Shown one piece after another: positions 34,548 through 44,609 of a DNA stretch of 64,000 bases. The notes under the pieces were generated by a model. It was given only the letters and a program-made list of their open reading frames with translations. It ran no database searches and was not told where the DNA came from. The stretch lies in NCBI GenBank assembly GCA_046343855.1, contig JBKDMX010000084.1, positions 501-64,500 on the forward strand, given 5' to 3'. The stretch's first letter is position 1, and every line of letters begins with the position of its first letter. The stretch comes from Planctomycetia bacterium. GTDB lineage: Bacteria; Planctomycetota; Planctomycetia; Pirellulales; UBA1268. The translations under genes and the position numbers were made by a program.

Positions 34548-35513
34548 TCAACCCACGTCGCGGGTTTGGAAGAGCGATACGGCCAGGCTCACAGCGGCCC
34601 CCACGAGGCAGGCGGCGTAGAGGCTGACCAGGCCGAGATAACCGAGCGTGATCGGGTGGCCCTGCGTGAGTGCCTCGGTGGGCCAGAAGCACTGCAGGTT
34701 GGGCACGATGGCCGACGCCAGGCCGAGGAGCCCGGTGCCAGCCAGCGACTTGGTGAGAAAATATTCGCCCACCAGTCCGACCAGAAACACGCCGATGCAC
34801 ACCATCAGCGTGGAGATCTGGCCGAGCCGCGTCGACGCGGCCACCGCGATCGCCGTGAGCACGACGAGGGCCTCGAGAATCATGACCAGGCCGATCGCGA
34901 GCTGCGGATTCCAGTCGACCGCGGGGCTCTGCAACTGCCAGTTGCGATTGATGCACGACACAAGCCCCCAGGCCCCCGTCGCGGCCACGGCGGCCGCGAT
35001 GGAAAACGTGGACGGAAAGGGCCAGCGGTAGAGGTAGTTGGCCAGCCCCGACACGAGAAATGCGAGGGCGGCGGCCAGGAGACCGAACGTGACCACCGGG
35101 GCATCGAAGATGTCTTCCGCCCGCACGCTCGACTGCACGCGGTGCCGCACGGTCAGAAGAAACACGACCGCCAGCAGCCAGTAAGCGATCGCAATCGCCC
35201 CCGTGACACCGAGAAACTTGCCCACCACCACCATCCAGCGCGGCACCGGCTTGCTCACCACCGTGAGCACGGTCTTGTTGTCGATCTCCCGCGAGAGCAC
35301 GCTGGTGGCCGTGAAGGCGGCTAAAAACAGGCCCACCAGGAAGAGCGTGCTCAGGCCGAGATCGATCAGGAGCTTATTGTCGTCCTCGAGCGTGTAGGCG
35401 GCAACGTTGACGTTCAGCACCAGCGCCAAGAGGCCGGCGCAGATCAGCACCGCATGGATCGGCTGCCGAATCGATTCCAGAAAGGCGTTGCGGGCGATGG
35501 CAAAGAGGGGCAT
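34548..35513 (-). CDS. ABC-2 type transporter permease-like membrane protein
   Basis: Start at ATG 35513 (MPLFAIARNAFLES). SREIDNKTVLTVVSKPVPRWMVVVGKFLGV is the typical ABC-2 (NosY/YhaP-like) motif. Six or more TM segments. Confidence 0.65.
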   Translation of the reverse strand: MPLFAIARNAFLESIRQPIHAVLICAGLLALVLNVNVAAYTLEDDNKLLIDLGLSTLFLVGLFLAAFTATSVLSREIDNKTVLTVVSKPVPRWMVVVGKFLGVTGAIAIAYWLLAVVFLLTVRHRVQSSVRAEDIFDAPVVTFGLLAAALAFLVSGLANYLYRWPFPSTFSIAAAVAATGAWGLVSCINRNWQLQSPAVDWNPQLAIGLVMILEALVVLTAIAVAASTRLGQISTLMVCIGVFLVGLVGEYFLTKSLAGTGLLGLASAIVPNLQCFWPTEALTQGHPITLGYLGLVSLYAACLVGAAVSLAVSLFQTRDVG

Positions 35514-35673
35514 GAGACCTCCGTTGTACCCCATGAATTATGAATTTCCTGTAAGCGCCCGCCTGAAATTGCAAAAATCTCATGAGCGGGCCGCGTCCGC
35601 GAGCAGAGGCCCGGGCGAGAGGTCATAATGGCATCCAAGCCGGGTTTCTCGCCGACTGCCTCTCGTCTTTTCC

Positions 35674-42712: not shown

Positions 42713-42731
42713 TGCCCAGGCGCTGCCTTTC

Positions 42732-44609
42732 ATGACCAACGAACGCCTGCCTGCGATCATCGCCGTCGTGCTCATGGCCGCCTGCCTGGGCGGGGCTGGC
42801 GTCGCTGCCCACGCGGTCCAAAAAGCCCGCACGGAACTGCAGCTCGTCGTGCCGAGCATTGATTCCGAATCGATGCCGCCGCACGTCGCGGTCGTAACGG
42901 CCGCCTTGGGAACGTTTCGCGGATTGGCCGTCGACGTGCTCTGGGCCCGAGCCGACCAACTCCAGTATTCGGGTGAGTATTTCGAGGCCCAGACGCTCGC
43001 CCAGTGGATCACCACCCTGCAGCCGCGGTTTCAGAAGGTGTGGGCGTTTCAGGCATTCAACCTGGCCTACAACATCTCCGTCTGCACGCAGATCTCCACG
43101 GAGCGGTGGTCATGGGTGTCGAAGGCGATCGAGCTCTTGCGGCAGCGCGGCATTCCGCTCAATCCCAAGGCTCCGCAACTGCAGATGGAGTTGGCCTGGA
43201 TTTTCCACAACAAGATCGGCGGCACGAACGACAAAGATCATTGGTACTACAAAGCTCGCATCGCCCGTGACATGCAGGAGGTGCTCGGCGATATGACGAC
43301 CGGTCGCACGTCTGCCGAGGTGTTGGCAAGGTTCCAGGCCGTCGTTGATGCCCCCGACACGCTTTCAGAGTTGCTGACGAAGAAGCCCAACGTGCACAAG
43401 GCGATCGACCTAGTGACCGAGCATGGCGCCAGTGTCGATGAGGCTCTCCTGCGGATGCTCGGCCGGGCGCTCATGTATGCGAATTCCACCGATGGCCGCC
43501 TCCTGCGCGGCAACACGCTGCCCGCCGACACGAATGGCCCGCTCCTCGAGGCCATCAAGGAAAACCGCGACGTGGCGGCGTTGCTGTTCGACCATCTGAT
43601 CCCGCACCTGCAAAAAAAGGTGCTCCGCGAGCGCTACAACATGGACGCCAAGGAGATGCTCGCAGCCATGCGTCGCTACGGGCCGCTCGACTGGCGTCAT
43701 ACCAAGTCCCACGGCATCTACTGGAGCGAGCAGGGGTCGCGGATCAGCCGATCGCTGATGCGGCGTGAGGACGTCAATGAATTGATGCTCCTGCGCACAC
43801 GGATGCACATGATCACCGAGATGATGATGTCGGGCCGGGTCGAGTTCGATCCTGTCACGAACCGTATCGACCTCCTGCCCGATCCCCGCTTTGCCCGCCC
43901 GTATGAACAGGCCCTCGAAGAGGCCTTCGCCGAAATCGATTCCGCGGAAGGCGTTTCGGCGGCAGAGTTCGGCCCGGCGGAGCGGTCCGACCTGCTCAGC
44001 GGCTATGAGCGCTTCCTCAACAGCGCCACGCTGTTGACATTTCTCTACGGCGACAGACAACAGGCGCAGGAATATTTCCTCAAACTCAAGGATCTCGCCA
44101 CCCGCCGCGGCCAGGGGGACCACCCCGCCTACGAAGACACGGTCGAGACGTTCGTGGGCCTGCGGATCGCCGGCATCATGGACGTCGATCTGAAGGACCT
44201 GCGGCAATTTATCGACGCGATGATTCGCCGTGGCCTCATGGACGGACTGGCACAAGGCCAGATCGGTGTATTCAATCGCTATCTCGAAGCGGCATATCGC
44301 GTCTATGACCGGCGGTTTTCGGCAAGTGATCCGACCGCGAAATACACCAAGCAACAGTCGCAGTTGGATGACTTTCCAAAACTCGTCAACAACTCGTTCG
44401 AGAGTGTCATGAAGCAGTCCAGCCTTCCGGTGCTGACGAGAGCCCGTATGTGGGCATGGGCTCCGGATCGACTCCGTGAAAACACGTACGAGGTATTGGC
44501 CGAGACGCTGCGATCGCATGCCGAGGCAGAGGGACTCGACTTTGCCCGCGCCTTTCCGCCTCCGACCAAGACGGACAAGGGAAAGTCTGATGCAAAGGTC
44601 GAGGAGTAG
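42732..44609 (+). CDS. Membrane-anchored hypothetical protein (625 aa), last gene of the SPFH/ABC operon
   Basis: One N-terminal TM, then a largely helical, W/Y/F-containing sequence. I recognise no family. Starts 19 nt after the previous stop. Confidence 0.55.
   Translation: MTNERLPAIIAVVLMAACLGGAGVAAHAVQKARTELQLVVPSIDSESMPPHVAVVTAALGTFRGLAVDVLWARADQLQYSGEYFEAQTLAQWITTLQPRFQKVWAFQAFNLAYNISVCTQISTERWSWVSKAIELLRQRGIPLNPKAPQLQMELAWIFHNKIGGTNDKDHWYYKARIARDMQEVLGDMTTGRTSAEVLARFQAVVDAPDTLSELLTKKPNVHKAIDLVTEHGASVDEALLRMLGRALMYANSTDGRLLRGNTLPADTNGPLLEAIKENRDVAALLFDHLIPHLQKKVLRERYNMDAKEMLAAMRRYGPLDWRHTKSHGIYWSEQGSRISRSLMRREDVNELMLLRTRMHMITEMMMSGRVEFDPVTNRIDLLPDPRFARPYEQALEEAFAEIDSAEGVSAAEFGPAERSDLLSGYERFLNSATLLTFLYGDRQQAQEYFLKLKDLATRRGQGDHPAYEDTVETFVGLRIAGIMDVDLKDLRQFIDAMIRRGLMDGLAQGQIGVFNRYLEAAYRVYDRRFSASDPTAKYTKQQSQLDDFPKLVNNSFESVMKQSSLPVLTRARMWAWAPDRLRENTYEVLAETLRSHAEAEGLDFARAFPPPTKTDKGKSDAKVEE

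Follow-up and report, generated by a model that had tools for sequence, protein, structure and literature searches.

What bacterial SPFH assemblies do beyond the partnership of HflK/HflC with FtsH is a long-standing question. HflK and HflC form an alternating assembly of 24 subunits, a periplasmic dome or 'nautilus' built around FtsH, in which the transmembrane (TM) helices fence off a patch of membrane; it reshapes the membrane and is correlated with an acceleration of lipid flip-flop (PMC12048511). The clients of SPFH proteins have usually not been identified, and deletions of SPFH genes often have no phenotype (PMC13086221). Here we describe a cluster of seven genes, named A to G, found in a stretch of 64,000 nucleotides (the window; Planctomycetia bacterium, assembly GCA_046343855.1, contig JBKDMX010000084.1, positions 501 to 64,500). 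Its source is an uncultured freshwater planctomycete detected in more than 20 metagenomes. The cluster nominates a specific SPFH client, as three SPFH paralogues have been kept, in at least two classes, beside two orphan proteins and the full gene set of an ABC-2 transporter. Judged from sequence, it probably encodes one undescribed membrane machine.

Several described systems come close to parts of this cluster. The nearest for the SPFH paralogues is HflK/HflC-FtsH of Escherichia coli (SPFH3 subfamily; PDB 7VHP/7WI3/9CZ1), to which we return below. In SPFH-NfeD operons (stomatin/QmcA-YbbJ, FloA/FloT-NfeD), as predicted for the present cluster, an SPFH scaffold shares an operon with a dedicated membrane partner. 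However, the cluster has no NfeD, and its partners are ABC-2 subunits and two orphan families. A 2009 survey of prokaryotic SPFH operon types never mentions ABC transporters (Hinderhofer et al., PMC2636767). In Pseudomonas aeruginosa, the three SPFH paralogues PaFlo5-PaFlo6-PaFlo7 are encoded in one predicted operon, suggesting a hetero-oligomer; they occur patchily and are regarded as horizontal acquisitions, and the paper mentions no ABC transporter (PMC13086221). The likeness of PaFlo5-7 to our cluster noted here concerns operon composition, and the cluster, in contrast, is vertically conserved across classes. As regards the transporter, an ATPase of the DrrA/GldA/NodI type and ABC-2 permeases of family PF12679 are shared with NosFY(-NosD) (PDB 7O0Y), PmtABCD and GldAFG.

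Each ingredient is known (SPFH scaffolds, SPFH-NfeD operons, ABC-2 exporters), and what is new is the hard-wired partner set with its two unannotated families. No published description of the cluster was found in the literature on SPFH/HflK/HflC proteins in connection with ABC transporters, operons, gene neighbourhoods or Planctomycetes. Likewise, neither the curated libraries nor the full-text literature yielded a conserved operon-like cluster joining HflK/C-type paralogues to a complete ABC-2 transporter. An earlier note on this DNA had proposed an undescribed SPFH-ABC machine. A conserved unit, for which no publication was found, is indeed what we see, but a wholly unprecedented three-SPFH operon it is not, PaFlo5-7 being a precedent.

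Gene order is conserved in two classes of Planctomycetota

Gene A (34548-35534, minus strand, 328 amino acids) encodes an ABC-2 family permease and is divergent from the six other genes, all on the plus strand. B (35674-37716, 680 amino acids) encodes a polytopic N-domain fused to an HflK-like SPFH region. It is followed by C (37754-38677, 307 amino acids), an HflC-like SPFH protein, D (38690-39928, 412 amino acids), a second HflK-like SPFH protein, E (39944-40963, 339 amino acids), an ABC ATPase, F (40976-42712, 578 amino acids), an ABC-2 permease, and G (42732-44609, 625 amino acids), an orphan membrane-anchored helical protein. According to the list of open reading frames (ORFs), the spacings are 37 nucleotides between B and C, 12 between C and D, 15 between D and E, 12 between E and F and 19 between F and G, in agreement with the description of six plus-strand genes 12-37 nucleotides apart in the earlier note. 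Its domain calls also agree with Pfam, which gives Band_7 in B, C and D, ABC_tran in E and ABC2_membrane_2 in A and F. The start of the divergent gene needs correction: A is an ABC-2 permease as proposed, whereas position 35513, taken as its start, corresponds to an internal methionine, the ORF running to 35534. In all seven ORFs, third-position GC is biased as in real genes of this genome (67% GC).

To survey relatives, one genome per GTDB species was scanned with an alignment of the G family. This gave 78 loci, from metagenome-assembled genomes (MAGs) labelled Pirellulales, Planctomycetia or Planctomycetaceae (about 50-62% identity) and from Phycisphaerae (about 30-37%). All window proteins were compared to these loci by tblastn, and loci having at least 9 kb upstream of G were considered informative (n=42). 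A on the minus strand, then B-C-D-E-F in order on the plus strand, were found in 41 of the 42 loci. In the remaining one (L070), a divergent F was recognised by profile comparison (probability 100%, E 1e-62), so that the order holds in 42/42. In all 42, A lies on the minus strand immediately upstream of B, and G is the last cluster gene in every locus examined. Three very divergent loci from Phycisphaerae, whose G shares only about 27-35% identity with the other family members compared, also carry the same seven genes in the same order. One of these loci belongs to 'Phycisphaerae bacterium RAS1' (locus tag RAS1_19700, GCA_007859745.1), which, like the other two, was reached from the most divergent of the G representatives listed and is the only relative not labelled as a MAG.

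The genes are closely packed throughout. From B-C to F-G, the gaps in the Planctomycetia-type loci have medians of 38, 5, 34, 18 and 19 nucleotides, with some overlaps, and the gaps are short in Phycisphaerae too. Domain architectures and lengths are kept across loci, including those of the N-domain of B and of the G family. Order and tight spacing kept across two classes argue strongly against a chance juxtaposition. Conservation of the neighbourhood was one of the tests by which the earlier note proposed to refute its own claim, and the gene order holds from Pirellulales-labelled MAGs to Phycisphaerae. On the best reading of these comparisons, the cluster, which is conserved in two classes, is specific to Planctomycetota.

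The absence of FtsH and NfeD reported by the earlier note was also found here. Neither is encoded among the likely genes of the 64-kb window, and Pfam scans detected no NfeD domain in any cluster protein or flanking gene. The missing ftsH is hardly informative, since in model bacteria such as E. coli hflKC and ftsH are encoded apart (PMC13086221).

Some record titles conflict with the content of the records. Contigs L001, L008, L018, L026, L027, L036, L049 and L062 are titled 'Candidatus Kuenenia', and L028 and L055 'Chitinophagaceae'. All are syntenic with the window, at 50-60% protein identity, and of the high-GC Planctomycetia type. From their sequences, the organism names on these MAGs look like mis-assignments.

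B, C and D resemble HflK and HflC

Band_7 is found above the Pfam gathering score in B (residues 329-539), in C (79.5 bits) and in D (64.4 bits). Hydropathy predicts one TM segment in C, at the N-terminus, and one in D. In each of the three proteins, a TM segment directly precedes the SPFH domain. B, C and D thus display the architecture of HflK and HflC, with an N-terminal TM anchor, a Band_7 domain and a C-terminal coiled-coil or 'hat' region, and their SPFH domains are predicted to be periplasmic. The genes are also arranged as an adjacent hflK-hflC pair, the K-type B preceding the C-type C by 37 nucleotides, with an extra K-type gene, D, after them.

C reached 120.7 bits against the NCBIfam model hflC (TIGR01932, cut-off 134.4), while B and D reached 104.2 and 95.7 bits, respectively, against hflK (TIGR01933, cut-off 159.4). 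Against PDB sequences, C matched HflC (7VHP chain G; E 1.3e-18), its C-terminal region aligning to HflC residues 171-320. Residues 572-666 of B aligned to residues 262-356 of HflK (E 5e-10), and D aligned to the same C-terminal segment (E 8.5e-9). By sequence, C is therefore HflC-like and B and D are HflK-like; none can be demonstrated to be an ortholog of HflK or HflC, because the scores stay below the equivalog cut-offs. The SPFH part of B is only 26% identical to D (E 5e-9), which points to an old duplication. C is the most conserved of the three paralogues in Planctomycetia-type loci (75-88% identity, as compared to 62-80% for D and 53-69% for B). This would fit a subunit contacting both B and D.

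Compared with the E. coli system, the cluster thus has in common the adjacent K-type and C-type genes and the organisation of their products. By analogy, its working mode is probably alike, an alternating hetero-oligomeric ring fencing a membrane patch around a client. On the other hand, there are three paralogues instead of two, B carries a conserved orphan extension with six TM segments, and the scores are below the cut-offs. The genes in cis also differ, being those of an ABC-2 transporter and of an orphan solenoid rather than hfq and hflX, with no FtsH nearby.

The N-domain of B has no relative in Pfam or the PDB

About seven TM segments are predicted by hydropathy in residues 1-331 of B, the seventh being the one that precedes the SPFH domain. 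The region of about 310 residues upstream of this segment contains six TM segments and conserved loops. Two conserved motifs, LRGGAS and YRPxxPGExxRPAFDSRxLGxLTxPxS...YQFGxE, are kept in Phycisphaerae, whose loci retain the polytopic N-domain of about 330 residues. The loops carrying the motifs are predicted to be cytoplasmic. No Pfam match was obtained with the N-domain even at E<=10, nor any PDB match with the family profile at E<=10, which places it outside the well-characterised families. Membership of such families was among the outcomes that the earlier note said would refute its claim.

Two candidate identities were considered for this domain and rejected. A third ABC-2-like permease is not supported by hhalign comparison with the F family (probability 0.3%). 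The label 'divalent metal cation transporter', given at JGI to a 93%-identical homologue of B, was not reproduced: no Cation_efflux match appeared in Pfam at E<=10 and no CDF structure was matched by the profile.

A, E and F probably form an ABC-2 transporter

E matches PF00005 with 112 bits. Its translation contains an intact Walker A (GPNGSGKST), a Q-loop, the signature SKGMQRR, a Walker B (LLILDEPTSGMD) and an H-loop (CSH). With these motifs, E is by sequence a competent ABC ATPase of the DrrA/GldA/NodI-like branch. It remains under every equivalog cut-off, with 227 bits against 312 for DrrA (TIGR01188), 196 against 403 for GldA, 178 against 424 for NodI and 147 against 240 for LptB.

In the ORF calls, gene E appears longer in the Phycisphaerae loci L060, L063, L064, L065, L069, L070 and L072 (about 406-583 amino acids as compared to 339 in the window). 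It is called at 381-392 amino acids in RAS1-type loci. The longer Phycisphaerae versions may have an extra C-terminal region or result from mis-called start codons.

A, with about eight predicted TM segments, matches PF12679 (ABC2_membrane_2) at 39.1 bits and F at 32.2 bits, for a cut-off of 27.2. The two proteins share 31% identity over the coupling-helix motif (BLASTP, E 4e-7). This makes them distant paralogues within the ABC-2 family and, probably, the two halves of a heterodimeric permease. With a single ATPase gene and an A that is never missing, the parts add up most simply to an E2-A-F transporter whose membrane part is a heterodimer. The earlier note had described A as a second ABC-2-type permease. 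The family is correct, but A and F are probably subunits of a single transporter rather than separate systems.

Two different permease-like subunits served by one ATPase gene are also found in GldA/F/G, and an extracytoplasmic accessory part occurs in the NosFY/Pmt/Gld group. However, the cluster proteins score far below the equivalog cut-offs of these systems. A has no NCBIfam match, F matches only PmtD (18 bits, cut-off 220), and the GldF, GldG and NosY models are matched by neither. When the F family profile was compared to the PDB, weak matches to NosY (E 0.0025) and PmtD (E 0.009) were obtained, covering the generic ABC-2 core and coupling region only. To our knowledge, no SPFH link exists for NosFY, PmtABCD or GldAFG.

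A further difference resides in F itself. Residues 214-421 (41615-42238 of the window) form a stretch of about 200 amino acids devoid of TM segments, which replaces a two-TM hairpin of A and for which no meaningful Pfam match was found, even at E<=10; no known domain is recognised in the insert. Hydropathy thus bears out the earlier description of a 578-residue permease with an insert of about 200 residues. The insert is probably periplasmic, since the coupling-helix motif is taken as cytoplasmic; here as elsewhere, the topology statements rest on hydropathy and motif position. F also has an N-terminal extension in the window. In RAS1-type loci F has 461 amino acids, and it is this extension, not the insert, that is absent.

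G is a predicted all-alpha solenoid protein of a large unannotated family

G is predicted to start with a TM anchor (residues 8-26), followed by a conserved amphipathic helix (residues 50-79) and by a TPR-like all-alpha solenoid. The full-length protein gave no match in Pfam, in NCBIfam or among PDB sequences, and its halves gave no meaningful one in Pfam at E<=10. One distant homologue matches TPR_14 (E 0.043); otherwise Pfam added nothing new on the divergent orthologues. An AlphaFold model computed from a 25-sequence alignment (pLDDT 74.9) shows the N-terminal TM helix, the long amphipathic helix and an all-helical solenoid. Compared to the PDB with Foldseek, this model retrieved generic TPR/ARM/HEAT proteins only (best E 0.07, TM-score <0.2), and the family profile retrieved designed repeat proteins only. 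The earlier note could name no family for this 625-residue protein, and these searches return no specific relative either. Conservation is highest at residues 49-175, a stretch that overlaps the worst-modelled residues, 36-144. A conserved stretch that is poorly modelled alone would fit an interface with a partner or with the membrane.

The family is large. Hundreds of full-length homologues, all unnamed or 'hypothetical', come from Planctomycetia-type metagenomes. A profile search against 1.84 billion cluster representatives (clusters at 50% identity) retrieved 2,621 clusters at E<=1e-3 and 869 at E<=1e-30. Among the 150 matches listed, nearly all representatives are 600-780 amino acids long, and most of the diversity is Phycisphaerae-like. 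The cluster thus points to two sizeable unannotated families, that of G, with no fewer than 2,600 clusters (50% identity), and that of the B N-domain, in a phylum with an unusual and poorly understood envelope and membrane biology.

LapB (YciM) is a TM-anchored TPR adaptor of FtsH in E. coli, working in a machine of membrane quality control. Like G as predicted, it combines a single N-terminal TM segment with a helical-repeat domain and could be a functional analogue. In contrast to LapB, G has no rubredoxin domain and may face the periplasm. No kinship in sequence or fold was detected: LapB appeared neither in the PDB profile matches of G nor in the Foldseek matches listed.

A candidate control region between A and B

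The divergent region between A and B (35535-35673) is 139 nucleotides long. It contains the motif aTTGTGAnAATCnnGTGAGcgg (window version) at 35567-35589, and the motif is found at the same position in many Pirellulales-type loci. Across loci, a -10-like TAnAnT box follows the motif by about 25-30 nucleotides. In the window, this box is CATAAT at 35624-35629, about 45 nucleotides before the start codon of B, and the predicted transcription start lies near 35636. Motif and box could be a shared control region, an operator plus the promoter of B-G, and are offered as a candidate and a lead. Scanning with the sigma-70 consensus found no promoter, the aTTGTGAnAATCnnGTGAGcgg region included. Terminator-like hairpins were no more frequent than in shuffled sequence, and Rfam gave no match anywhere in the window.

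One module or separate systems

The reading we favour, with about an even chance, is that A and the divergent B-C-D-E-F-G encode one dedicated inner-membrane module made of an SPFH scaffold and an ABC-2 transporter. In such a module, C would alternate with B and/or D to form, by analogy with HflK/C, a ring or dome that stands on the cytoplasmic membrane at its periplasmic side and encloses a patch of it. The ABC-2 transporter would consist of the A-F heterodimer and two E subunits, and would be linked to the SPFH assembly by the periplasmic insert of F and by G with its TM anchor and helical repeats. The scaffold would then have the transporter, in place of or beside FtsH, as its client or working partner, just as HflK/C has FtsH. 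The six extra TM helices of B, with their cytoplasmic motifs, would be a fused second client or a docking domain. The weakest step of the proposal concerns the job: within the confined microdomain, a lipid-like or envelope component might be exported or flipped at the expense of ATP. This job is suggested by analogy, because lipids, lipid-linked glycans or amphipathic molecules are the typical cargo of ABC-2 systems and because HflK/C assemblies remodel membranes and speed lipid flip-flop.

In its most specific form, the proposal is that B, C and D build a three-component cage or 'nautilus' holding A-F-E2 as a hard-wired client, docked via G and the polytopic domain of B and exporting or flipping an envelope lipid or precursor. 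We put this form forward tentatively; taken whole, it is less likely than not. If it is right, the cluster would be the first case of an SPFH assembly whose client, a transporter, is genetically encoded with it, and G and the N-domain of B would be two new families.

Several observations weigh against a single module. FtsH, encoded elsewhere as in E. coli, could be the true client of B, C and D. Basic residues flank the TM segment of G on both sides, leaving its membrane side ambiguous. The structure model of the N-domain of B, computed from an alignment of only 21 sequences at 65-70% identity, has a pLDDT of 47.8, too poor for a fold search. RNA covers little of the putative operon: in the single metatranscriptome with matching RNA, two contigs of 151 nucleotides were recovered, both inside gene C, and no F-G transcripts were found in the RNA data. 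The two contigs do indicate that gene C is expressed. Finally, a P1B-type ATPase gene next to A hints at a link with metals that lies outside the model.

An alternative is two separate but co-located systems. B, C and D would be the HflK/HflC modulators of FtsH of this lineage and A, E and F, with or without G, an ordinary ABC-2 exporter, the two being linked by co-regulation, for instance in an envelope-stress or membrane-quality-control regulon. The canonical hflK-then-hflC order of B and C and their HflK/HflC-like sequences are what this explanation predicts, and it is at ease with the missing ftsH, which is uninformative as hflKC and ftsH are unlinked in model bacteria. However, all three SPFH proteins fall below the NCBIfam HflK/HflC equivalog cut-offs, and HflK lacks the conserved 330-residue polytopic domain of B. 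Moreover, gene order and near-zero spacing are kept down to about 30% identity, which is more typical of one complex than of co-regulation, and G and the N-domain of B are found only in this context among the loci examined. We regard two co-located systems as rather unlikely.

The neighbour of A suggests another explanation. P0 (32546-34546, plus strand, 666 amino acids) encodes a P1B-type heavy-metal ATPase (TIGR01525, 548 bits, cut-off 346) and is convergent with A. The protein has no N-terminal metal-binding domain. Its transmembrane motif is CPS, which is kept in 27 loci; the usual P1B motif is CPC, CPH or SPC. Most Planctomycetia-type loci have P0 upstream of A (the median gap is 9 nucleotides), and so do the Phycisphaerae loci L060, L063, L065 and L082. 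It is a possible associate of the module. Together with a NosY-like ABC-2 transporter and the SPFH scaffold, it might form a metal-homeostasis module exporting or delivering a transition metal to the periplasm or envelope. The best PDB match of the F profile is NosY, a component of the copper-related NosDFY system. Nevertheless, that match is weak, is limited to the generic coupling region and is accompanied by an equally weak match to PmtD. P0 was not detected by tblastn upstream of A in L069, L070 and L072, and a radical-SAM gene takes its place beside the RAS1 cluster. A shared promoter is excluded by the convergent orientation of P0 and A. No invariant Cys/His clusters occur in the N-domain of B, in the insert of F or in G, and the metal-transporter label given at JGI to the B homologue was not reproduced. 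A metal-homeostasis module is therefore improbable.

A chance juxtaposition or a mobile or anti-phage defence island is the least credible explanation and very improbable: SPFH and ABC-ATPase domains do occur in some defence systems and E does give generic ATPase matches to PADLOC models, but these arise from the P-loop of E only, the six other proteins matching none, which led us to reject a defence system, while synteny in 42/42 loci of two classes, housekeeping neighbours (dnaN, gyrB, the P-type ATPase), a GC content and codon bias like those of the remainder of the window and no mobile-element genes seen speak against an island or an accident.

Neighbouring genes

A fourth SPFH protein is encoded in the window by floA (17172-18143, plus strand; PF12127, 443 bits), so that, with B, C and D, the count of four given by the earlier note is confirmed. 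FloA normally pairs with an NfeD-family partner. Here floA has no adjoining NfeD gene; the ORF before it (16447-16974, plus strand, 175 amino acids) looks by eye like a phosphoribosyltransferase gene rather than NfeD.

Downstream of G, a gap of 521 nucleotides with locally low GC (44610-45130) precedes dnaN-DUF721-gyrB. The minimum of the cumulative GC skew falls at about 48-54 kb of the window, which suggests a replication origin nearby. Near dnaN, no DnaA boxes were found beyond chance with the E. coli consensus, and no dnaA adjoins dnaN.

The baeRF family is usually discussed in connection with conflict or ribosome-rescue systems, and one protein of 428 amino acids with bacterial archaeo-eukaryotic release-factor-like domains (baeRF family 3, 82.9 bits) is encoded at 23787-25073 on the plus strand. 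About 11 kb downstream of the cluster, an MMPL/RND-type membrane transporter of the lipid-export type (768 amino acids) is encoded on the minus strand at 55638-57944. Just upstream of P0 lies the gene of a prepilin-type protein (31102-32415, plus strand, 437 amino acids) with the N-terminal cleavage/methylation motif GFTLVELLVV, which resembles the expanded pseudopilin-like families of planctomycetes.

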